Assembly (NCBI GenBank): GCA_963701855.1
Contig: CAVPBK010000006.1
Coordinates: 1,088,001-1,152,000 of the forward strand
DNA from: Nitrospirota bacterium
Lineage (GTDB): Bacteria; Nitrospirota; Nitrospiria; Nitrospirales; Nitrospiraceae
Length of the DNA stretch: 64,000 nucleotides
Reading direction: 5' to 3'
The first letter of the stretch is position 1. Each line of letters starts with the position of its first letter. This document shows, one piece after another, positions 29,032 to 41,521 of this stretch. Under the pieces are notes generated by a model. It did no database searches, was not told the origin of the DNA, and saw nothing but the letters and a program-made list of their open reading frames with translations. The translations under genes and the position numbers were made by a program.

Positions 29032-32000
29032 TCATTCCGGCTCCGCTAGCCCGCTCAGTTTAGCCCATTCGCTCGTCGGCCGATAACGATACAATATACC
29101 TTCCTCCGGTTCCAGCGCGACGAGGTGCACCCACTCGTTGTGATAGAAGTGTTTCAGCACATCGTGCCGCGCGATCAGCTTGTCGATCCGTTCGCGCGGC
29201 GCTTCGACGATAGTGAGCAACCGCATCGGTTCGTGATAGGGCACCTCGCCATTCATGACGGTTTGCTTGGCCAATCCAAGCCGGAGATCGCTCCAGGGTC
29301 CCGACATGATACCAAGTCGTCCCACCACGTTGTGATAGATCTTGCTGCCGCTGCCGTACACATCGTTGTCGACCGCAGAGAAATAGTGTTCCATGTTGAT
29401 CCATTGGCCCACGACTTGTGGACCGGTCAACAGCACTTCGAGCAGACGATTGCTGGGATCCTCCCGATAGTCGTAGGAATGAAGAAAGACACGTCCTCCT
29501 AGGTCCAGCCCCTTTGTCAGCTCACGCCGCCCGATCAAGAATGCCGTATTGCTTGAGAGACCCCACTCAGGTCTGACCTGGCTCCAGTCGACGCTCCGTC
29601 GTTTGACGAGTGTTTCGGCCTTTCGCCCCTCCATGGACCGCTGGATGTCGGGAAAGCGGCCGCAGCGTTCCTGGCTGGTGAGCGCGGAAGCCTCCTGCAG
29701 ATCTTTCTGGAGTCGGGCCAAGTCTGCGCGGTGCGTCGGCGGTACGTCTTCCAAGTCGAAGACTTGTACCTCGTCGGTCGTCGTGTCCATCTGGCCGGCG
29801 AGGAAATGCGTATCTGAGGGGATGTCGATCTCGACCTTGGCCAGCAGTTCTCTCACTTTTTGGTTGTTCGCCATCATCGCGAGGACGCGGGCGTTGGGCT
29901 TGCCCTCATTTCCGCCGCAGGCGCCGCAATCCAGGGCGGATTCGTAGGGATTGTTGTCAGATGTGCTGCCGTGAGCGCAGAACAGGACGATCCGCGCGAA
30001 GTTCTTCGTCATTCCCATCATGCGCAGGGCCGTGTCCACAGTGAGCACCTGTTCTTCGAGCGTGAAGCCGGTTCGTGTGATCCGTTCCTTCTGGCGGGAT
30101 GCCGATCGTGCGTTAAGCTTGTAGTCGCGGCGCAAGGTGTCGACAATGCCGCGCAGTGCCTCGCTCGAAAGGCCTGCCTGGTTCGCTGTCTCGATCAATG
30201 CCGGCTCCGCCTCGCCCGGGCCACCCAAAGCCCATTGCCGTAATCCCTCGACCAGCGCAGGCGTAATGCGCGATCTGCGCAGCCCGACCCGTTCGGTCAG
30301 CGCCTTCGTGACCAGAGCCTGCTGCTCAGTTGCCAGCAGTTTAGCGGTTTCGGCCGGCTCCAACTTGTCGACAGTGAGCGTGGTGGCCAGCGCCGGCACG
30401 AACAAGCGCTGCAACCGGGAGGTCCAGCGCCGGTAGAGGGCCGGCAACAACGTTTTACCGAAAATGGGGAGGCTGTAGAACCAACCGAGCGATTCCACCA
30501 TGACATACGGCGTCACCACGTTTTCTTTTAGATCGTGCAATAGTGTGTGGCCTGCGTGGACCCACTTGGTCCAGGCCTCGTACTTCGTGACCTTGTGGTC
30601 GAAATAGCTTCGGGGAATTTCGCGTACTTCGTTCTTGGCACGCATGATCACCGGAAACTGTTCGGTGTCATGTTCCTTTCCCCAGGCCCGATATCGAATG
30701 AATGCAGCAAAAAATCCGGCGAATCCGAAAGTCTCGTTCGGACCGGTGGATTCGAGATGGCGCCGGAAGGGCTCGGATCGCACATCGATGCAGTAGACCG
30801 ACTGCGAATTAGGGCGAGGCGGAGACGCCACACTACTGCTCGTCGAGGTGTGCCGGGAAGAGATCCTGATCTGACTTAACAGACGCTCTTGATAGCCCAT
30901 CTCAAAGGCCTTGAGCCACAGCGGCCCATGGTCCGATTCGGGGAAAGCCTCTATCCACTCGATCAGTTGCTTCAGGGCATCGGGAGCGCTGTCGGCGAGA
31001 GCAATCGCATCGATGTCGGAGGCTTGAGCCAACGCCAGCAGTCTCTTCGCCATCCCACGCCTGGCTGCTGCCAGTTGGCGCGGGACGACCTCGGTTCTGT
31101 AGCGTTCGATCACATTGCCCCAGCCGTTTCGTTTCTGGTGTCGGAGCCGATCGACTTCCTCGGCATAGAGGGCCGGCAATCGGCCGACGACCCTTTGCCG
31201 TCTCAGATAATATTCATCCGGATAACTCCTCATGTAGGTCGTTACGGCATCGTAGCGCCCTTCGATGCCGAGTTCTTCGAGGCAGGTCTTCTGAACCAGC
31301 TCGCGCGCGTACCAGAGTCGGATGGCCAGGAACTTCACGAGTCCCGCAGGATAGGCTTTCTGCCACGGGTAGTCTCGCTCCTCTCCGCGCCACTTGATAA
31401 AGCCAGCCCAACCGGGCAGCGCGGTCAATTGCAGCGACAGATAATCCTGTCGGAGCTCTGCCGGAATGCCGAGTGCATCTAAACTGTCGAGGAGCGCGTC
31501 TTCAGGATGGTCAGGAAGTTGCGCGATCTTTCTGCAGCTGTCCTTGATTCCGCAGAGAGACCATTCGTGAGAGGCGAGCGCTTTCCAGACACCGTAGAGT
31601 CCCTTCTCTCGCTCCGGCATAGACCAGGCCGCATGGCCTTCGTCCAAGAACGCCTCGCACCACCTGACCAATTGATCGTTGATCTGTCGGACGACCTGCG
31701 TGCCGAACGTGTCGTCGCACCAGTGCGAGAGAGTCAGCCATCGTCCCAACGCCGCCTGGTCCCCTGTCACGATCTTGTCGATCCGAGTGCGCAAGTCCGG
31801 CGCCGCCAGAATAGGAGACAGTTTTGCCGAAATGCGCTCGACCGCCTCATACGAGAGGTCCGGCAGCGTTGCATCAAGAGACTCCACGATAGGCGTGCAG
31901 AGTCCTTCGGCCAGACAGGCGCGCAACACATCGCCGTGCCTCAGCGTACGCGATCCGATGCGCACCTCTTCGTGGCTGGCGAGCGGTCTTAACACGGCGT

Positions 32001-32262
32001 CCAGATCTTGGAGTCGAATGCGTCCCGACTTGAGATAGGCGCGATACTGATGGCTGGGCAGGTAGCCGTTGCCTCCCAAGAACTGCTTGCCGCGCCGGAC
32101 GGTCTCTTCGAATGGAAGGTATTCAAGGCTATGGAGCGGGTTATGGTGCACGAAAGTCCGCATCGGCCAATACTGCGCGACCACTTCGCCTGCGAGATGG
32201 ACAATACCTCGCAGCTCCATTCGCCTCGTTTCGATGTCGGGTCGGTTCTCTACTTGTTCCAT
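29032..32262 (-). CDS. dabA: DUF2309 DabA/MpsB inorganic carbon transporter subunit
   Basis: FVHHNPL, YCIDVRSE, AHGS, LDCGACGG (Zn ligands), RPEWGL, SGSKIYHNV. Confidence 0.95.
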   Translation of the reverse strand: MEQVENRPDIETRRMELRGIVHLAGEVVAQYWPMRTFVHHNPLHSLEYLPFEETVRRGKQFLGGNGYLPSHQYRAYLKSGRIRLQDLDAVLRPLASHEEVRIGSRTLRHGDVLRACLAEGLCTPIVESLDATLPDLSYEAVERISAKLSPILAAPDLRTRIDKIVTGDQAALGRWLTLSHWCDDTFGTQVVRQINDQLVRWCEAFLDEGHAAWSMPEREKGLYGVWKALASHEWSLCGIKDSCRKIAQLPDHPEDALLDSLDALGIPAELRQDYLSLQLTALPGWAGFIKWRGEERDYPWQKAYPAGLVKFLAIRLWYARELVQKTCLEELGIEGRYDAVTTYMRSYPDEYYLRRQRVVGRLPALYAEEVDRLRHQKRNGWGNVIERYRTEVVPRQLAAARRGMAKRLLALAQASDIDAIALADSAPDALKQLIEWIEAFPESDHGPLWLKAFEMGYQERLLSQIRISSRHTSTSSSVASPPRPNSQSVYCIDVRSEPFRRHLESTGPNETFGFAGFFAAFIRYRAWGKEHDTEQFPVIMRAKNEVREIPRSYFDHKVTKYEAWTKWVHAGHTLLHDLKENVVTPYVMVESLGWFYSLPIFGKTLLPALYRRWTSRLQRLFVPALATTLTVDKLEPAETAKLLATEQQALVTKALTERVGLRRSRITPALVEGLRQWALGGPGEAEPALIETANQAGLSSEALRGIVDTLRRDYKLNARSASRQKERITRTGFTLEEQVLTVDTALRMMGMTKNFARIVLFCAHGSTSDNNPYESALDCGACGGNEGKPNARVLAMMANNQKVRELLAKVEIDIPSDTHFLAGQMDTTTDEVQVFDLEDVPPTHRADLARLQKDLQEASALTSQERCGRFPDIQRSMEGRKAETLVKRRSVDWSQVRPEWGLSSNTAFLIGRRELTKGLDLGGRVFLHSYDYREDPSNRLLEVLLTGPQVVGQWINMEHYFSAVDNDVYGSGSKIYHNVVGRLGIMSGPWSDLRLGLAKQTVMNGEVPYHEPMRLLTIVEAPRERIDKLIARHDVLKHFYHNEWVHLVALEPEEGILYRYRPTSEWAKLSGLAEPE

Positions 32263-33557
32263 ACGAACAATTCCGTGATGGCGCCGGCTGCCGTCGTGAG
32301 CGTGCCCGTTTCAAACAGATGGGTCGGGACCACGCCCAAAGCCAGCAACACCACAACGAGGATCGTGAGCGAAGCCAATTCGCCAGGAAGCAGATCTGTG
32401 TAGCGCAAATCACAGCGGCGCGCTCCGAAGAGCCACTGCTGCGCCATGCCCATGATGTACCATGAAGCGGCAAGCCAGGCCGTCACGATGATGACGATCG
32501 CGATGGAGAAGGAAACCTCGGACAACAGAAGCAGGCCCATGAAACCGGCAAAGAGGCCGAACGGCGGCAGGCCTGTCGCAGCCAAGGCCAAAAGCGAGAG
32601 AAGAACGGCGTAGCGCGGCATAGTCGCCGCCAACCCACTGATGGATTGCGGGTCCACGTCGTCTCCATAGCGCGTTCGGATGACCTGCCAAGCGAGCAGC
32701 AGTCCGCTGGTGGTGAACCCGACTGCCCCGACGAAGACCGCAGCGCGTGGTGTCGTGGCATTGGTCGAGGCACCAAACCACCACAGCATCGAGTAGAACG
32801 ACAGGCTGCTGTACGACAAGAGGAGTCGTGCGCGCGATTGCGCCAGCGCCTTAACCGCACCGTAGAACGTGCCTGCCAGGGCAAACAGGCTTACAGTCCA
32901 GGCCGCCGCGTCAGGGACTGTCGGCATGACCGATGTTGCGCCGTGCAGTCCGATCACGGGGAAGAGCAACACGATGAACGAAGGTAGGCTGCCGGGGAGC
33001 CGCGTAAGCGCAGTGATATGTCCCTGGTGAAACGGCATAAGCGGCAACAAAACTGCGCAGGTCAACAAGGACGCGACGGAAGAGAGCGGCGGGGCAGCCA
33101 CGAGAGAAATCGTGACGCACCCAACGGCGAGTGCATAGGCGCCGATCCCCAACCAGGAAATTGGCCACAATGGCGTATGGTGGCGGTAGAGCAACGCGAT
33201 GAGTGAACTGAGCAGCACAAGCAAGCACACCTGCCCCATGACGTTTTGGCTCGTCAGGATGACGAATCCCAGTCCGAGAAACAGCAAGGTCGTGATCCAC
33301 GACAGCCGCAGATTCTTGTGACCCGGCTGTCCCAGGAGAGATGCACAGGCGGCAACCGGCAGGAGATAAACCAGCAACAGATTTTCAGGTGAGGTCGTGA
33401 GGGATTCAGACATTCCGGCAGCCGCGACGAGGCTCAGGATCGACAGGACGACCGACCAGTTCCTGAGATAGTCCGGTCGCGACCAGACTGCGAAGCCCAA
33501 CGCTGCTCCCAGAAGAGGAATACCTGCCAGAAGCAATGAAGCGACGGCACCATCCAT
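32250..33557 (-). CDS. Second proton-conducting membrane subunit (NuoM/MrpD-like) of the DAB complex
   Basis: Polytopic; LPLMPFH, GLPPFGLF; start overlaps the dabB stop. Confidence 0.8.
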   Translation of the reverse strand: MDGAVASLLLAGIPLLGAALGFAVWSRPDYLRNWSVVLSILSLVAAAGMSESLTTSPENLLLVYLLPVAACASLLGQPGHKNLRLSWITTLLFLGLGFVILTSQNVMGQVCLLVLLSSLIALLYRHHTPLWPISWLGIGAYALAVGCVTISLVAAPPLSSVASLLTCAVLLPLMPFHQGHITALTRLPGSLPSFIVLLFPVIGLHGATSVMPTVPDAAAWTVSLFALAGTFYGAVKALAQSRARLLLSYSSLSFYSMLWWFGASTNATTPRAAVFVGAVGFTTSGLLLAWQVIRTRYGDDVDPQSISGLAATMPRYAVLLSLLALAATGLPPFGLFAGFMGLLLLSEVSFSIAIVIIVTAWLAASWYIMGMAQQWLFGARRCDLRYTDLLPGELASLTILVVVLLALGVVPTHLFETGTLTTAAGAITELFVWNK

Positions 33558-35257
33558 CACCGCGACCATCCTCGTACGCTTTTGTCGAATCGGACCAGGA
33601 GTCGCCCGGCTACCCCGCCCAGTTTTTGATAGACCTCGTCCGCATAAAGCCGGTTCATGAACAGGACGTACAAGCGAATCCTCACCCCCTCGACCCACGA
33701 CGGCATCCAGACAGTACGCCCATGGGCCCGCATGTAGAGATAGAACCATCCGGCGATCGTCGTCAGCGTCGCCATGATGATCATCAGGTCGAAGAACCAA
33801 TTCGGGAGTTCGGCCGCCTTGAAGTAGGACGCAACTTCATGCGGGTCCGGGTAGAGGAACGCCGTAAAAGATTCCACGGCGAATAGATATACAAACACAA
33901 TGAACAGCAGGGTCAGCAGCATCACGGACGACACTTTCCACGAGGCCACGGCCCTTAATCGTGTAAGTGTCATGATGGCCTGTGAGGAGGTGATCCAGAT
34001 GAAGAACAGAAAGATCACCGTGCCCTGCGACTCAAGCAGTGGAATATGCAACACGCCGTGCGTGACGAGGAGAATCAGCAGGGGAATGAAGAGTGTCGTC
34101 ACGAAACCGGTCGACCAGGTGAGACGGGAGAAGCCCTCTTCCTCCTCCTGATGGTCATGGTGAGGGAAATGAGGTTCCTGCCGGGCCTTATGGATGACGT
34201 TGCCACAGTTCAAAAACACGGTCGCCTTGAACAGTCCGTGCGCGATCAGATGGAAGACTGCGAGAGAAAATGCGCCCAATCCACATTCCATGATCATGTA
34301 ACCCATCTGACCTATTGTGGAGAAACCGAGCGTTTTCTTGATGTCGTTTTGCGCCAGCATCATGCTGGCACCGAGAACAGCTGTCAGGGTGCCGACAGCG
34401 AAGGCTACGTGGAGGGTTGTCGAGCTCAATCCGAAGAGCGGCGCCAACCGGTTGATCAGAAACCCGCCGGCATTGATGATGCCGGCATGGAGCAACGCGT
34501 GCACCGGTGTGGGGGCATAGAGCGAGCGGGGCAGCCAGACGTGGATCGGAAACTGCGCCGACTTGCTCATTCCTCCGATGAACAGCAGCAGCGTGACGGC
34601 TGTGGTTCCGTTGAGTTCCCATCCAGGCAGAGGCGAGAGCGTGACCGGCGTCTCAGCCGCCTTGACGAACAATGGCTGGAACTCCAATGTGCCATAGAGT
34701 GAATGGGCCAGGACGATACCGGAAAGAAACGCCACATCGCCGACGCGCAAAAGCGTAAACGTTCGAAAGGCGCCTTCCAGCGTCGCTGCATGCGCATGAT
34801 TGTGGGCCAGGATATAGAGCAGGTAACTCAGGAGCTGCCAAAAGATGAACAGCATCATGAGATTGCCGCTTGAGACCATGCAAAGCAGTACGAAGGTCGT
34901 AAATCCGATCAGCGAAAGGTACCGGGTTTCATGCGGATCCTGGTACAGGTATCCGACGGAATAAGTGTAGATGATGGTTCCGACGCCGGAGATTAACACC
35001 ATCATGATCGCACTCAGCCGATCGATGTAAAAACCAATGGGAAAAGCCAGCGTCGCAGGGGATGAGGGGTCGTAGAACCGAATGGTGATGGCCCCGTGTG
35101 TCGCCACATACCAGAGGGTCACGATGGCTCCCAGCAAAGCTGCGCCGATGGGATAGGCCGCGATCCTGGCGCGTCGGTGTCGGGAGTTCTCATCGCCGAC
35201 CAGCACGATGAGCCCCGCGAGGAGCGGGAGGAATGGAACTAGGATGACGGAGAACAC
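33557..35257 (-). CDS. dabB: NuoL/ND5-like DabB/MpsA membrane subunit
   Basis: KSAQFPIHVWLP, APTPVHALLHAG, STIGQMGYM, HLIAHGLFKA; GTG start with GAGG RBS. Confidence 0.9.
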   Translation of the reverse strand: MFSVILVPFLPLLAGLIVLVGDENSRHRRARIAAYPIGAALLGAIVTLWYVATHGAITIRFYDPSSPATLAFPIGFYIDRLSAIMMVLISGVGTIIYTYSVGYLYQDPHETRYLSLIGFTTFVLLCMVSSGNLMMLFIFWQLLSYLLYILAHNHAHAATLEGAFRTFTLLRVGDVAFLSGIVLAHSLYGTLEFQPLFVKAAETPVTLSPLPGWELNGTTAVTLLLFIGGMSKSAQFPIHVWLPRSLYAPTPVHALLHAGIINAGGFLINRLAPLFGLSSTTLHVAFAVGTLTAVLGASMMLAQNDIKKTLGFSTIGQMGYMIMECGLGAFSLAVFHLIAHGLFKATVFLNCGNVIHKARQEPHFPHHDHQEEEEGFSRLTWSTGFVTTLFIPLLILLVTHGVLHIPLLESQGTVIFLFFIWITSSQAIMTLTRLRAVASWKVSSVMLLTLLFIVFVYLFAVESFTAFLYPDPHEVASYFKAAELPNWFFDLMIIMATLTTIAGWFYLYMRAHGRTVWMPSWVEGVRIRLYVLFMNRLYADEVYQKLGGVAGRLLVRFDKSVRGWSR

Positions 35258-35288
35258 TGGTACCTCATGATGATCGACGCAGGAACCC

Positions 35289-35350
35289 AAGAAAACAGAA
35301 AAGCCAACCGGGGATTCCCCGACGACTGATCGAGGCAATCCGGTTGGCTT
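35289..35350 (-). terminator. Intrinsic terminator inside the dabB 5' leader
   Basis: Minus strand AAGCCAACCGG...CCGGTTGGCTT (perfect 11-bp basal stem) followed by TTCTGTTTT, ~30 nt before the start codon. Confidence 0.75.
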
Positions 35351-35480
35351 GTACTGCAACCGGCCTCTCTCCTGAATTGCCGGTCGCCCTACGGCCGCTG
35401 ACAGTCGAAGCCGGTGTTTCGCCTGTTTCCGAGGAGTCTCGAGACAGGAGACATCGCCGTACTGTGAAGTCCAGCTCAAT
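35289..35480 (-). promoter_or_regulatory. Structured 5' leader; candidate attenuator/riboswitch
   Basis: Long hairpin 35400-35465, hairpin 35356-35387, terminator 35289-35350 and a mutually exclusive antiterminator pairing; TTGACG at 35504-35509. Confidence 0.6.
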
Positions 35481-35689
35481 CAATAATACTGTCCATAGAC
35501 ATTCGTCAAGCGTCTGCTACGAAATTGGTGTCCCCGATCGTTGGGCGAAGGCCTAAAAGTCCCAGGCGGCGAACCGGTTTGGATAAAAGCCCTACGTTTC
35601 CACTTGTTCAGGCGGGCACCCCCCCTTATAATCTGCTGCCGAGTCGGCTACCACAATCGAATTCCCTCATCATTCGGACAAAGTACCGC

Positions 35690-36034
35690 GTGGAAAACGC
35701 CATTCGCAATATCATCATCAAGTTCGAGCAAGAATTCATGGGTCGCGGACCCGATGAAGTGCGCGCGTTTGTCGTGCGGGATCTGGTCGTTGTCCGGCTG
35801 AAAGGGGTGCTTACGCTCGCAGAGCGCCAATTAGCCAAAACGACAGAAGGCGTCGACATGGTGAAGCGGTTACGGCAAAACTTGATCGCACTGGGTCGCG
35901 ACAAACTCTGCGATCAAGTGAGCGACATCACGGGCGCCAAAACCCTGGCCCTTTTTACCGACATTGACGTACAGATCGGCGAACGGGTTTTCGTGTTCAC
36001 ACTCGATCGCGACATTCAGGGTGGAAGCCGATAG
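35690..36034 (+). CDS. DUF2294 / MpsC family protein (start uncertain)
   Basis: FEQEFMGRGP..VR.....DLVVVRLKGVLT.AERQL, FTDID...GERVFVFTL. Confidence 0.85.
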   Translation: MENAIRNIIIKFEQEFMGRGPDEVRAFVVRDLVVVRLKGVLTLAERQLAKTTEGVDMVKRLRQNLIALGRDKLCDQVSDITGAKTLALFTDIDVQIGERVFVFTLDRDIQGGSR

Positions 36035-36048
36035 CGCAAATACGCACA

Positions 36049-36640
36049 ATGGGACAACTCGCCACAGGCCTCCTCAAGTTTCGATTCGAGATGTTCGGCA
36101 AGAAACAAGAGCTCTTCACCAGGCCTTCAGAACTCCTTGATCCCTTTTCATTACCTGTTTCGATTCACGAGTCGACCCGACTCTCCTGACCCAAGCCGAT
36201 CCCGTGGAGCTCTGTATTCTCAGGAACGTCGGCAATATGGTGGCTGTGTGGCTCGATGCAAGGGGGCGGCACAGCGACCATCGAGTACGCCATTGGCCGT
36301 TCTGAAGGTTCCACCCAGTATTGTCTGCGGACATGAGGCTTGCAGTGTGATGAGAGCGCTCGTGCACCGAAGGATGTGCAGGACCCACCGGCCCTCAGGA
36401 AGTGGGTCGGGCAAGCAGAAGCCTGCCCGGCGCTTGATCAAAGCTTCGCGGGAAAACATGCGATCACAGATCGACCAGCTTCGCACCCCCCCGTCCGTCG
36501 CCGTGCGTCTACGTCCGCGAAACGTGTCTCTCCATGGGTGGGTGTATTCCATTTCGACCGGCGACGTGTGGGTCTATGACTTCGACTCCGAGCGATTCAC
36601 CTCTCTGCTGGACGAGGCTTTTCCTAGCTTGAAAGCATAG
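36049..36640 (+). pseudogene. Frameshifted beta-carbonic anhydrase
   Basis: Segments in different frames: MGQLATGLLKF.., LFITCFDSRVDP..Q..P.EL.ILRNVGNMV, ATIEYA, IVCGHEAC, LHGWVYSISTG. Confidence 0.85.
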
Positions 36641-36670
36641 TGTTTGTCCTGGCAAGCTGTACCCACGACC

Positions 36671-38140
36671 ATGCGCCCACTGGAAACTCTCTCTTTCGAT
36701 AACTCCTATGCCCGTTTGCCCCAGACTTTCTACGCCAAGTTGAACCCCACGCCGTTTGACGTGCCTCCGTATCTCGTCAGTTTCAATCCCGCAGCAGCCG
36801 AACTGATCGACCTTGATCCGGCGCAAGCGAAGCGACCGGAGTTTGCCGGGGTGTTTGGTGGGAGTCTTCTAGTCCCGGGGATGGAGCCGTTGGCGATGCT
36901 CTACTCGGGCCATCAATTTGGGGTCTACGTTCCGCAATTGGGAGACGGTCGCGCAATTCTCCTTGGCGAAATACGGAACGAACGGGGCGAGAAGTGGGAT
37001 CTGCATCTGAAGGGGGCGGGACTTACACCGTTCTCGCGAGAGGGAGACGGCCGCGCGGTTCTGCGTTCGACCATCCGGGAGTATCTCTGCTGCGAAGCGA
37101 TGCATGGGCTGGGCATTCCGACGACGAGGGCACTCTGCATCGTCGGCAGCGATCACAAGGTCTATCGCGAACAGGTCGAGACCGGCGCGATCGTACTTCG
37201 CATGGCGCCCTCTCACGTGCGGTTCGGCTCGTTCGAAATTCTCTATTATCGGAAACAACATGAACAGCTCAAAGTGCTGGCCGACTTCGTGATTGCGCAT
37301 CACTATCCTCATCTCGTGGAAGCAGCAGACAAATATGCGCACTTCTTTCATGAGGTCGTCGAGCGTACCGCGAAGCTGATTTCCCAATGGCAGGCCGTCG
37401 GTTGGGCGCACGGAGTGATGAACACCGACAACATGTCGATCCTGGGGATCACACTTGACTACGGCCCGTTCGGCTTTATCGACGACTACGATCCAGGACT
37501 TGTCTGCAACCACTCCGACCACAACGGCCGTTATGCCTTCAATCAACAGCCCTATATCGGTCTCTGGAATCTCAGCTGTCTGGCGCAGGCGTTGCTCCCG
37601 TTGGCCCAGAAAGAAGATTTGAAGGCCGCACTAGACCGCTACACCCCCCTCTGCGAAGAAGGGTACATGGAGTTGATGCGGGCTAAGCTCGGACTCATCG
37701 AGACGAAGGAGGAAGATGCGTCGATGATCCAAGACCTCTTGGCGCTCATGCACCTACAGCATGTCGATTACACTAGCTTCTTTCGAGCCCTGGGACTGTT
37801 TCAAGCCGGAACTGAATCGCTGAATGAGCTGATCCGCGACTTCTTCCTGGATCGTGAATCGTTCGACCAGTGGGCTCGCCGGTACAAGGATCGGTTGCGC
37901 CAAGAGGGGAGTCGAGACGAGGACCGGTTGGTCCGTATGAACCGCGTCAATCCCAAGTACGTGCTCCGCAACTATCTGGCGCAGACCGCCATCGAGAAGG
38001 CTCAGAAGAAGGACTTCTCCGAGATCGATCGGTTGCTCTCTCTGCTGCAAAATCCCTACAGCGACCAGTCAGGCATGGATGCCTACGCAGCCCCGCCACC
38101 TAACTGGGGCAAACACTTGTCCGTTAGTTGTAGCTCCTAG
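36671..38140 (+). CDS. selO: Protein adenylyltransferase SelO/YdiU
   Basis: YSGHQFG, LGDGRA, GDGRAVLRS, HGVMNTDN, NPKYVLRNY, C-terminal SCSS. Confidence 0.95.
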   Translation: MRPLETLSFDNSYARLPQTFYAKLNPTPFDVPPYLVSFNPAAAELIDLDPAQAKRPEFAGVFGGSLLVPGMEPLAMLYSGHQFGVYVPQLGDGRAILLGEIRNERGEKWDLHLKGAGLTPFSREGDGRAVLRSTIREYLCCEAMHGLGIPTTRALCIVGSDHKVYREQVETGAIVLRMAPSHVRFGSFEILYYRKQHEQLKVLADFVIAHHYPHLVEAADKYAHFFHEVVERTAKLISQWQAVGWAHGVMNTDNMSILGITLDYGPFGFIDDYDPGLVCNHSDHNGRYAFNQQPYIGLWNLSCLAQALLPLAQKEDLKAALDRYTPLCEEGYMELMRAKLGLIETKEEDASMIQDLLALMHLQHVDYTSFFRALGLFQAGTESLNELIRDFFLDRESFDQWARRYKDRLRQEGSRDEDRLVRMNRVNPKYVLRNYLAQTAIEKAQKKDFSEIDRLLSLLQNPYSDQSGMDAYAAPPPNWGKHLSVSCSS

Positions 38141-38248: not shown

Positions 38249-41200
38249 ATGGCAAAAGGAAGTGGAGAATCGAAGCTCGCCCTAGTGGGGGTGGTCACCC
38301 TCGCAGTTGCGCTTGCCGGCGTGCTGTTGGTGAAAGAGCCTCTACGCAGTTCGCGGCCGGTAGGGACCGGGTTGGATATAAACCAGACCACCGGTGAGGA
38401 GTCGGTCCGCGCGCGGCTATGGGAAGATCCGGTGGCTGCGGTGCAGCGGGGCCTGAGAGGAACTCGGCCACCACCAGCCGGGTCATCCAAGCCCGGCCAG
38501 TCGGGTGAGTCATCTCTCTCGCAGCGTCTGAGGCCACTGCGGCAGGCGATTGCCGATCGAGTCGAGAAGGGCGAGCGGATTACAGTCCTATTGGTGACCC
38601 TGAGCGGCGATCCCTATGCAGAGAGTACGGAGTCCCGCATTCGAGATCGTTATGCGGTCGGCACCGCACTGGGGGTGGCCTGCTATGTTCCGGAAGACGA
38701 AGGACATCTCTCGTTCGTCGAGGGGGACGCTCAGGCGGTCGGTCATGCGTTGCCGTACGAGTGGTATCGGATCCGCAAGACACGAATATGCGGCGAGGAA
38801 CGGGGTCGAATCCAGAGCACGCTCGTGGTCTGGATTCCCGACGACGCCCTGAGTCAAGGGTACTTGGCGACCCTGACCTCCTTGTCGCAGGCCATGGTGT
38901 GTCAGGAGTCGAAACAGAAGAACGAATGCATACTGACCGAGGACAAACGCAGGCTGGTTCGATTGAATCCTGCAGTTCAACAAGCCGTCACGTTCAAGCT
39001 GGTGGGGCCCCGCAGTTCTTCCGCCCTGCGTGATCTCCTGGAAGAGGCTGGAAGCTTGTATGGAGAGCCCCATGAAGGGGTCGGCGTCTGGCCGAATACG
39101 GACGGGACCATCGAACTGTATTCACCATGGGCCAGCGCGATGAAAGGGCTTATGGCCTATGGACTGAAGAAGGAAGGGGGGAAAGGCCCGGCCTGCCAGA
39201 CCTATGAAGCCTGCGAGCAGGAGTTTTTTCATCGGCTGGCGGCCGCGAATATACGGCTTGTCTATGAGATCGGATCTGACGACCGGCTCTTCGACACGCT
39301 GATCGAGGAATTAGAACGTCGCCAGGTACGGCTCGGTTGGGATGCGGTGATCCTCATCGGGGAGTGGGATTCGTTGTATGGTCGAGCGCTGCCCATTGAG
39401 TTCCGTGCGGCAGCTTGTGCGAAAGTGGCGACCTTCACGGAGGCAGAGCTGAAGCAGATCCAGGTGCCGACGACGATCAAAGCCTGGTGTCCGACAGTCC
39501 CGCGTGCAATCGATCTGCAGGTTCAGCGCACGGCGGACTATGAGTCCCTGACCTTGAACGTCTTCCGCTATAGCTATCTGAGCGGTCTCGACGGCGAAGT
39601 GCCGGGCGACGACAGCGTGAAAGCCGCACGTGTAGAGAAACCCAAAACCAGTGAGACGGCGAAGGATGCACTGGCCGGTGGTCTAAAGGAACGGCCCGAA
39701 GGCACCAGTCAGCTTGATTATGTGCGCGCCTTGGCCACGCGGATTCAAGACGAAGGAGAAGGCGCGAAAGCGATCGGTATCCTGGGCTCGGACCCTTACG
39801 ACGCATTGCTCATTCTGAAAGCACTACGGCCGGCATTTCCTTACGCCGTCTTCTTCACCGTCGACCTCGATGCACGCCACCTTCAGGCGAGCGAATATCA
39901 ATGGACCAGGAATATGGTCATCGCCTCGCCATTCGGCTTGCAGCTGGATGGTGGTTTGCAACGCGATGTCCCGCCGTTCAGGAGCAGTGATCAAACGGCC
40001 ACTTATTTTGCCGTACTCCGGGCGGTGAATTACGTTACCTGTCGCGCAGTGGGCGATCGACAAAACCCGGCAGCCCTCTGTCCAGGGGGATATCACGTTG
40101 CGATGACCCCGGATGACCGAATCTACGATGCGGCTGAACATCCTCGGATCTTCGAAGTAGGGCGAGAGGGTGCCGTGGACTTAAGTGTCGTGGATATCGA
40201 AGGTGTGAGAACGATCCATCCCTTACGGGCGGACCTCGACCATACGGACAATCTGGGACAGTTGAAGCAGGGCATCGGTCCCGGCAGCGCAACCGTGACG
40301 GCGTTGGTCGCGATCGGGCTGTTCGTCGGGACGGTGCTCGCCTGGACCAATCAGCGACTCTGGCTCCGGGTCTCGCGCTCCTGGCGTCTGCTTGCCGTGA
40401 CTGGCTTCCTTCTTCTGGCCGGGACATCGGTCTTTTGGGTCATGGGTGGCGGGACAGCCCTCATGGCCCACCACGATGAAGGCGAACCTTTTTCGTGGAC
40501 CGCGGGCGTGAGCATTTGGCCCGGTGAGGGGCTCCGGCTTCTCGCGGGGATCTTGTGCGTCGTCTTCCTGGTCAAAGGATTGCGGGATCTCGTCAAGAAC
40601 AGCGACGATCTCACCGATGCCTTCCAGTTCCGTATCGATCAAGGCCAACGCTCCCGATTCACCTTGAAGACATTCTGGACGAATCTGCAGCGGGTCTATC
40701 ATTCGGCTGCCACCAGAACGGCCACCACGGTCGATCAAGCCTGGGCCTGGTACCTCGATGCAGCAGACCCGTTGCAGCGGACGGCGCGCGTTCTGGTCCT
40801 ATTCCTGCTCTATGGCGCTGTCATGATTTCCCTCGGTCACTGGGTCGTTGACGAAGAGATGATCCATCCCTGTCGAGGGTGGCTGAGCTGTCGAGTGGAC
40901 GAGATCATGACGCTGGTCAGCGTGAGCCTCGTCGTGTTGCTGAACCTGGCGGTGTTCGATGAGGTCATGTTGTGCCGTAGGTGGGTCGGTTGGGTGAACA
41001 GCTCGAGTGGGGGGTGGTCGGAACAGGTGCAGCAGGAATACTTGCGTGAGTATGGGTTGAGCCAGAGCCACAAGACCGAGTTCGAAAAACTCAAGTACTT
41101 AGCCGGGATCGATCTGATCAGCCGGCGGACGGAAGCGGTTAATCGCCTCATCCGGTACCCCTTCATCACCTTGCTGATCATGATCGCCGCGCGCAACGAC

Positions 41201-41521
41201 TACTTCGATATTTGGAATTACCCACTCCTCCTTCTGCTATCCTGGGCCGTGAATGTCGTTCTGGCACTGAGTGGAGCGTTATTGCTCTATCAAGCTGCCG
41301 ATCGGGCGAAACAAGCGGTCTTGGCGGGACTGAGCAAGCAAATGATCCAAGCCCTTGGGCTCGGCAAGGACCACGAAATCCGTGCGAAACAGGTCCAGTA
41401 CATCATCGGCGAGGTTGAGGCCAACCAGAAGGGCGCGTTCGTTCCCTTCTACCAGCAACCCGTCGTTGAATCGTCGCTCTACGGCGTCGTCGCATTGCTG
41501 CAATATCTGTATATGAGATAA
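38249..41521 (+). CDS. Large unknown membrane protein
   Basis: 1090-aa ORF with an N-terminal TM anchor, ~650-aa soluble region and several C-terminal TM helices. Confidence 0.8.
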   Translation: MAKGSGESKLALVGVVTLAVALAGVLLVKEPLRSSRPVGTGLDINQTTGEESVRARLWEDPVAAVQRGLRGTRPPPAGSSKPGQSGESSLSQRLRPLRQAIADRVEKGERITVLLVTLSGDPYAESTESRIRDRYAVGTALGVACYVPEDEGHLSFVEGDAQAVGHALPYEWYRIRKTRICGEERGRIQSTLVVWIPDDALSQGYLATLTSLSQAMVCQESKQKNECILTEDKRRLVRLNPAVQQAVTFKLVGPRSSSALRDLLEEAGSLYGEPHEGVGVWPNTDGTIELYSPWASAMKGLMAYGLKKEGGKGPACQTYEACEQEFFHRLAAANIRLVYEIGSDDRLFDTLIEELERRQVRLGWDAVILIGEWDSLYGRALPIEFRAAACAKVATFTEAELKQIQVPTTIKAWCPTVPRAIDLQVQRTADYESLTLNVFRYSYLSGLDGEVPGDDSVKAARVEKPKTSETAKDALAGGLKERPEGTSQLDYVRALATRIQDEGEGAKAIGILGSDPYDALLILKALRPAFPYAVFFTVDLDARHLQASEYQWTRNMVIASPFGLQLDGGLQRDVPPFRSSDQTATYFAVLRAVNYVTCRAVGDRQNPAALCPGGYHVAMTPDDRIYDAAEHPRIFEVGREGAVDLSVVDIEGVRTIHPLRADLDHTDNLGQLKQGIGPGSATVTALVAIGLFVGTVLAWTNQRLWLRVSRSWRLLAVTGFLLLAGTSVFWVMGGGTALMAHHDEGEPFSWTAGVSIWPGEGLRLLAGILCVVFLVKGLRDLVKNSDDLTDAFQFRIDQGQRSRFTLKTFWTNLQRVYHSAATRTATTVDQAWAWYLDAADPLQRTARVLVLFLLYGAVMISLGHWVVDEEMIHPCRGWLSCRVDEIMTLVSVSLVVLLNLAVFDEVMLCRRWVGWVNSSSGGWSEQVQQEYLREYGLSQSHKTEFEKLKYLAGIDLISRRTEAVNRLIRYPFITLLIMIAARNDYFDIWNYPLLLLLSWAVNVVLALSGALLLYQAADRAKQAVLAGLSKQMIQALGLGKDHEIRAKQVQYIIGEVEANQKGAFVPFYQQPVVESSLYGVVALLQYLYMR

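Follow-up and report, generated by a model that had tools for sequence, protein, structure and literature searches.

A conserved terminator-coupled leader RNA of inorganic-carbon-uptake genes in the Nitrospirales, a candidate ON switch upstream of dabB-dabC-dabA

In front of the dabB-dabC-dabA operon in the window (the whole stretch of 64,000 nt that was analysed) lies a leader, a structured RNA that is conserved and, as far as the sampling goes, restricted to the Nitrospirales. The leader belongs to an uncatalogued structured RNA class, new as a class though its kind of regulator is known, and on the evidence of the genes that its copies precede it is a cis-regulatory RNA of an inorganic-carbon-uptake regulon. 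It probably acts as a genetic switch. The reading that we favour, and hold to be reasonably probable, is that the leader is a copy of a new Nitrospirales RNA class in which a closed fold, stabilised by an effector, blocks the terminator, making it an ON switch. The preliminary description of this DNA, which had taken the region for a terminator-coupled leader of the DAB genes, was right in kind. Nitrospira and its relatives, which grow on CO2, are nitrite oxidisers and complete nitrifiers of soils, oceans and treatment plants; we know of no account of how carbon uptake is regulated in Nitrospira.

The leader region (35289-35509, minus strand) covers ~220 nt between a promoter-like site and dabB. 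The predicted dabB leader promoter was read from the sequence as a -35-like hexamer TTGACG (35504..35509, minus strand) and, after a 15-nt spacer, a -10-like hexamer TATTAT (35483..35488, minus strand), which is kept in same-family homologues; the 5' end of the leader RNA would lie near 35476. A simple promoter scan did not list the pair, whose spacing is only 15 nt. Among the 99 distinct copies, 45 have a site of the form TTGA[CT]-N14-19-TAnnnT 67-91 nt 5' of the core, against ~2 expected from shuffled sequences, and this site presumably has a promoter role; in the second-family copies a TGGTATAA-type box takes the place of the TTGA[CT]-type site. At the other end of the leader, a GAGG ribosome-binding site (35266-35263, minus strand) precedes the dabB GTG start (35257-35255, minus strand), a start set by homologue alignment. 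TTGACG, the hairpins, the terminator, the U-rich tail and the dabB ribosome-binding site were all found on the minus strand where the preliminary description had placed them.

The genes downstream of the leader are dabB, encoding a NuoL-like proton-translocating subunit (33557..35257, minus strand; PF00361 6.5e-46, PF00662 2.1e-13), a dabC-like gene for a second antiporter-type subunit (32250..33557, minus strand; PF00361 2.1e-9), the ATG of which overlaps the dabB stop (TGATG), and dabA, encoding the DUF2309 carbonic-anhydrase-like subunit (29032..32262, minus strand; PF10070 3.4e-266). With a NuoL-like DabB, a second antiporter-like subunit and a DUF2309 DabA encoded together, the genes have the composition expected of a DAB1-type pump operon; the name dabC and the DabB-DabC-DabA layout follow the DAB1 heterotrimer as presented in the available text of its description (bioRxiv 10.64898/2026.05.01.722082).

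The divergent neighbour is mpsC (DUF2294; 35678..36034, plus strand; PF10057 8.2e-32), which has no ATG ahead of its Pfam-matching part. A promoter-like pair for mpsC (TTGTTC, 17-nt spacer, TATAAT; 35604-35632, plus strand) has both boxes kept in homologous loci. After mpsC and on the same strand (36137-38140, plus strand) come a short beta-carbonic-anhydrase-like ORF (PF00484 partial, 8.7e-11) and SelO, a protein adenylyltransferase, a partner set that is unusual for a carbon-uptake locus, followed by a 1090-aa ORF (38249-41521, plus strand) with no Pfam family at E<=0.001.

The leader RNA consists, from 5' to 3', of a P0 domain, an irregular hairpin of the form GGC-N-GUA-GG-[P2]-AG-UAC-AA-GCC, and an intrinsic terminator. 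P0 (35410..35460, minus strand) has outer and inner stems and an internal loop (RUG / RA) that is small and conserved; of the long hairpin proposed earlier at 35400-35465, the presence of a 5' hairpin domain stood, with its place narrowed to 35460-35410. In a sequence-only alignment (A6, 42 segments) 81.0% of the P0 cells paired as against 73.4% after shuffling, a level reached by 0 of 500 shuffles. Both-side changes were seen in 11 of its 12 pairs, and slid controls gave 36-52%. P0 is common to the aligned dabB-type leaders; the SulP-type leaders are alike by eye only.

The irregular hairpin is built around a near-invariant core, GGC-N-GUAGGG ... CAGUACAAGCC, which forms the closing helix. 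GGC (35394..35396, minus strand), the 5' strand of the outer closing helix or P1 extension, pairs with GCC at 35348-35346; the arrangement GGY, 1-2 nt, GUR is found in 92 of the 99 distinct copies and UUGUR in 3. Within the GUAGGG core (35387..35392, minus strand), which is invariant in the 15-sequence seed, GUA (35392-35390) pairs with UAC (35353-35351), and GG (35389-35388) stands opposite AG (35355-35354). The GUA:UAC pairs are standard in 98-99 of 99 copies. Enclosed by the core is the P2 hairpin GCGACCGGC/GCCGGUUGC (35356..35387, minus strand; arms 35387-35379 and 35364-35356, loop variable), a strong 9-bp G+C-rich stem with both-side changes in 10 of 14 pairs and 90.2% of cells paired (helix 1), the matched arms of which bind better than mismatched ones (percentile 0.235). 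The 3' half of the core, AGUACAAGCC (35346..35355, minus strand), reads AGUAC-AAGCC, and its AAGCC (35350-35346) would serve both as 3' strand of the closing helix and as terminator base.

Among the variants, the closing helix takes other registers, namely UGUA:UACA with GGC:GCC in SulP copies and UUGUA:UACAA in others, and the weaker covariance-model matches vary in the core (GUGGGG, GUGUGG, CAAUAUAAGCC). Three mnhE copies from genomes with no detectable MpsC (L202, L204 and L206, in G081, G101 and G090) have a degraded core, e.g. GGGGGA or GGAAAGG for GUAGGG; the SulP copies in other MpsC-less genomes have it intact.

The terminator hairpin AAGCCAACCGG...CCGGUUGGCUU (35301..35350, minus strand; arms 35350-35340 and 35311-35301 with an inner hairpin between them) folds alone at -28.8 kcal/mol and is followed by a U-rich tail read from the sequence (35289..35300, minus strand). 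A G+C-rich stem-loop and then a U run on the transcribed strand are what an intrinsic terminator would be expected to show, and a U run follows the stem in all of the best 29 order-level matches; a simple terminator scan lists only the inner hairpin. AAGCC is nearly invariant, with alignment columns 77-81 showing little or no variation, whereas the next four terminator pairs covary. Helix 2 of the terminator is 99.2% paired with both-side changes in 4 of 9 pairs, and helix 3 has them in 6 of 6; beyond its first five pairs the stem changes on both sides, from AAGCCAACC/GGUUGGCUU to the AAGCCGGUUG/CAACCGGCUU of the SulP copies. Folding of the 241-nt leader gives -93.8 kcal/mol where 200 shuffled versions give -81 +/- 4.9 (z -2.6; 3 of them fold equally well), a single-sequence result that proves little alone; it is the conservation that makes the leader more than chance.

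Conservation was followed with a covariance model, R1, made from 15 homologous cores (alignment A1) by way of an RNAalifold consensus that comprises the short GUA:UAC helix around P2 and, directly 3' of it, the terminator hairpin. RNAalifold gave no structure on a wide 101-sequence upstream alignment, which was too gappy, and the trimmed set was used instead. The leader proved to be conserved in orthologous operons, with an R1 match at E<=0.01 in 109 of the 151 sampled genomes of the order (51/62 in family f1, 51/62 in f2, 6/21 in f3 and 0/5 in f4), the order being Nitrospirales by record titles. In 71 genomes from elsewhere in the class R1 found no match, and the 125 other genomes of the phylum gave 1 weak match (27 bits). 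At the DNA level, a 273-nt leader query finds counterparts in at least 11 genomes of the genus and, with its 3' half, in two further families of the order as well; in homologous loci the leader match sits between the divergent mpsC and dabB. The genome studied has no other leader copy, since its second R1 match is the reverse strand of the terminator hairpin.

Among 106 model-aligned copies, 99 of them distinct, 93.2% of cells pair as against 82.9% after shuffling (0 of 500 shuffles), in an alignment that was fitted to the model. Compensatory changes on both sides occur in 20 of the 29 pairs over the 99 distinct copies, and sliding the partners by 1-3 columns lowers pairing to 21-44%. The invariance of the core in the 99-copy set is partly imposed, because 80 loci were gathered by a pattern that fixed GTAGGG, AGTRCAAGCC and GGYTTTT. 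A conserved and structured domain with covariation, as expected of a riboswitch aptamer, was found. A scan of public genomes with the pattern returned at least 122 stretches, and among the matches listed nearly all titles are Nitrospira, Nitrospiraceae, Nitrospirales or Nitrospirota, with three records titled outside the Nitrospirota (L116, L132 and L146). L116 and L132 are not covariance-model matches even at E<=0.01; L146, a 5-kb contig of a metagenome-assembled genome, is a strong match and presumed to be mis-binned.

Two kinds of departure from the usual layout were observed. In L004, L007 and L017 ~170 nt lie between the terminator and the dabB start, including an extra segment with inverted ends (AGCAGGATGCT... 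/ ...AGCATCCTG) that looks like a small mobile or palindromic insertion. In the close relatives L005 (G018:C6:238507-241638) and L003 (G020:C31:1-1634), with 96-97% identical DabB, P2 and the terminator are kept; L005 lacks P0, has CUAGAG for GUAGGG and AGAGC for AGUAC, and carries the element 3' of a dabA-like ORF on the same strand, and the L003 sequence begins inside the motif. We take the element of these two for a copy that has decayed or been put to new use.

Of the 99 distinct copies, 59 have dabB as first downstream gene, 17 a SulP gene, 14 mnhE and 5 dabA; for 4 the gene was not called, two of these having too little sequence. The occurrence before SulP genes had been anticipated among the checks proposed in the preliminary description. 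The mnhE gene opens an Mrp-like cluster composed of mnhE-F-G, MbhD/E, MnhB, a NuoK-like gene and three NuoL/M-like genes. Independent Pfam scans gave 17 DabB-like proteins, 8 MnhE and 4 mis-picked ORFs for 29 loci, and for 19 loci 4 DabB-like proteins, 4 SulP, 6 MnhE, 3 DabA, 1 HtrA-like protease and 1 other. Single genomes of the second family hold three diverged copies, before SulP, dabA and mnhE, within ~8-18 kb. DabA is present in all 109 motif-bearing genomes and the motif in none of the 17 DabA-less ones; 25 DabA-bearing genomes are without a motif match. A fold kept before four non-homologous genes that serve one physiological task is to be expected of a cis-regulatory element and not of an inherited spacer, and the apparent position of the copies, in cis within the 5' UTR of related but non-homologous genes, is that of a riboswitch.

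In the second family, L062 (G040:C1:1205000-1224500) and L064 (G078:C14:38500-56469) have dabA alone with no adjacent dabB, and in their clusters each unit has its own leader copy. In L062 and L063 an HtrA-like protease follows dabA, and next comes the Mrp-like cluster with its three NuoL/M-like genes. DabA and the Mrp-like complex may form a larger carbon pump. A LysR gene lies upstream of some dabA copies of this family. One second-family genome, G107, is given as ~16 Mb (20 contigs; completeness 98%, contamination 1%), where its relatives have 2-5 Mb (sizes maybe rounded).

The preliminary description had not recognised the leader as a described riboswitch class, and the comparison with Rfam 15 bears this out: none of its 4227 models, which include nhaA-I, DUF1646, guanidine and pH-responsive leaders, gave a plausible match in 34800-36200 of the window at E<=10, where only miRNA and hairpin-ribozyme models appeared, on the opposite strand in both cases and with scores far short of gathering. 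In 30 kb from five other loci there was no Rfam match at E<=1. Literature searches, supplementary motif lists aside, found no description of the leader RNA, nor did a look-up of terms in the main texts of PMC12342949, PMC5737381 and PMC11109978.

Close relatives of the leader occur in RNA libraries. Metatranscriptomes from soil, rhizosphere, wetland and sediment have small word shares with the leader only, and four runs of one soil study contain unstranded contigs with 95-99% likeness to 35292-35624, 35341-35554, 35231-35311 and 35105-35406. Of these contigs, one has its end (35292) inside the U tract, one crosses the terminator into dabB, and one extends 5' past the proposed -35 site, to 35624; were the last minus-strand RNA, it would point to a further or another start. 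Such unstranded contigs give no start, end, strand or level, and gaps in their cover are meaningless.

The favoured mechanism follows from the double use of AAGCC, which could pair either back with GGC, closing the sensor hairpin, or forward with GGCUU, forming the base of the terminator. In the RNA that precedes the terminator 3' arm (35398-35344) the predicted fold is the closed GGC:GCC hairpin, at -26.7 kcal/mol, and in the full RNA the terminator form is better by 7.2 kcal/mol (-51.6 vs -44.4). The closing-helix contact is present in the minimum-free-energy fold of the nascent RNA in 98 of 99 copies, as against a mean of 70.7 of 99 when the flank is replaced by a composition-matched shuffled one. 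GGC:GCC is almost invariant and so beyond a covariation test; a double change occurs in one copy only, L215, in which the three strands read GGU / AAACC / GGUUU. Mutual exclusion of the closing helix and the terminator is on this evidence plausible.

Because the closing helix and the terminator would compete for AAGCC, stabilisation of the closed fold by an effector would make the leader an ON switch. During RNA synthesis such an effector, most likely a small molecule or an ion and less likely a protein, would stabilise the closed sensor fold, hold AAGCC off the terminator, so that RNA polymerase could go on into the carbon-uptake genes; without it the more stable terminator would form and transcription would end at ~35290-35300. 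In this model we infer the transcription start, mutual exclusion in vivo, the ON direction, and both the existence and the identity of the effector.

A protein could take the place of the small effector. According to this explanation, a protein acting in trans, MpsC (DUF2294) or another, binds the internal loops of P1/P2 and stabilises the hairpin against the terminator, and an irregular hairpin over a terminator is indeed the geometry of a protein-bound antiterminator. For 62 of the 99 copies MpsC is the divergent neighbour within 1.5 kb, at a median of 268 nt, and 98 of the 151 genomes have both MpsC and the motif; MpsC is nearby for 0 of the 14 mnhE copies and 3 of the 17 SulP copies, however, and in 11 motif-bearing genomes, several of them recorded as one or two contigs, MpsC is missing at E<=1e-5, with intact cores persisting in MpsC-less genomes (L199, L207, L205 and L208). 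For the MpsC model (pLDDT 88) neither a clear fold relative nor a conspicuous RNA-binding fold emerged: no sequence relative was found in the PDB, the best Foldseek E-value was 0.017, with weak rows for Bet3/TPC6, YslB and H-NOX-like folds, and the best hit of the VIA wide search (Z 6.7) is within the tool's stated noise. Literature searches on MpsC/DUF2294 found only unrelated uses of the abbreviation. The purine-rich GGAGA loop, earlier put forward as a protein site, is not conserved in the alignments and hence unlikely to be one, and P0, as an additional conserved domain, better fits a sensor that folds by itself. We therefore regard protein-dependent antitermination as possible but unlikely.

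Under the favoured reading of an effector-stabilised closed fold, the regulon points to inorganic-carbon limitation as the signal. For an ON switch the signal would have to increase as carbon runs short. Bicarbonate would suit an OFF switch better; as effector of an ON switch, a metabolite or ion that increases under carbon shortage would be the better fit. Alkaline pH and Na+, of which pH and Na+ had been named beside CO2/HCO3- in the preliminary description, are candidate signals in view of the Mrp-like cluster and the cation-coupled carriers. That the leader is a true riboswitch which binds bicarbonate/CO2 or a linked ion signal (pH, Na+), and so sets all the inorganic-carbon pumps of the Nitrospirales, seems rather doubtful to us; if true, this would make the leader the first RNA to sense inorganic carbon. 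The available part of a 2024 review describes the existence of gas-sensing riboswitches as unknown (PMC11259077).

An OFF switch, which would suit a bicarbonate ligand, would follow from the three-hairpin arrangement of the preliminary description, in which P2 is the anti-antiterminator and the 3' arm of an opened P2 (CCGGUUG) pairs with CAACCGG of the terminator 5' arm and blocks termination, so that a P2-stabilising ligand would turn expression OFF. The 7-bp complementarity is real in the window, and the mean pairing potential over all copies is -7.7 kcal/mol, but it does not covary: pairing within a copy (-7.72 kcal/mol) is no better than between unrelated copies (-7.80 kcal/mol), with a mean percentile of 0.55 where the true helices have 0.235 and 0.199. 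Unrelated arm combinations pair equally well or better (-8.2 to -10.4 kcal/mol), as G+C-rich CCGG-type arms would be expected to do. P2 is moreover far stronger than the proposed antiterminator, and a truncated alignment gave a consensus fold without this antiterminator. Such a switch is improbable.

We would also give little credence to an element without any effector, be it a constitutive attenuator, a pause or stability element, a sensor of pH or temperature through folding kinetics, or a small RNA acting in trans. The alx leader is alkaline-responsive. DAB, SulP-type bicarbonate carriers and Mrp antiporters should all be important under alkaline conditions, so that pH-dependent folding would unify the regulon, and a terminated leader would be a stable RNA of ~180 nt. 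The near-invariant unpaired nucleotides (GUAGGG, AGUACAAGCC and the RUG/RA of the P0 loop) nevertheless exceed, across families, what a pause site or terminator needs; the placement of the copies directly upstream of the genes of one regulon (4 of 99 uncalled) favours action in cis over action in trans, and no match to an Rfam pH element was found. Leader-peptide attenuation through a 72-aa ORF (35265-35483) is not credible, because homologues have 5- and 7-column gaps in the P2 loop and conservation follows pairing, not codons.

Whatever its effector, the RNA ties three mechanistically different systems, i.e. DAB, the SulP carrier and DabA beside an Mrp-like complex, into one regulon, and the shared leader is in itself evidence for a carbon-uptake role of the marine lineage's Mrp-like cluster. 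The RNA is an orphan riboswitch candidate whose regulon is sharply delimited, and it makes testable what signals carbon limitation in an autotroph without the Calvin cycle, and a validated effector would give a compact genetic part for CO2-responsive control.

Several known systems resemble the leader in part. CcmR and CmpR are LysR-type regulators of inorganic-carbon transporters that respond to carbon status; they are DNA-binding proteins, whereas the conserved element here is an RNA structure downstream of the promoter. The RAT/LicT antiterminator sites are imperfect hairpins with their 3' side over the terminator 5' arm, a geometry that the leader would share, but the leader is larger, with two domains, and persists in genomes without MpsC, the only candidate partner examined. 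The Li+ riboswitches nhaA-I and nhaA-II are described, in the available texts, as simple hairpin leaders with conserved internal loops that lie before Na+/H+ antiporter genes and activate them (PMC9646797, PMC5737381); no association with DUF2309, SulP or Nitrospira was found in the main texts searched, and the leader has no Rfam match. The Na+ riboswitch (DUF1646 motif, PMC9337991) differs from the leader, again without an Rfam match, in that here P0 and a long irregular hairpin with a different core are found, in that the regulon consists of DAB, SulP and Mrp-like genes, and in that the taxon is, as sampled, the Nitrospirales only. Yet in the available text this riboswitch is a leader of cation-transport genes whose aptamer helix overlaps the terminator shoulder and whose binding leads to read-through (ON), and the likeness lies precisely there, in a closed fold that, as proposed for the leader, would overlap the terminator and an effector that would give read-through.
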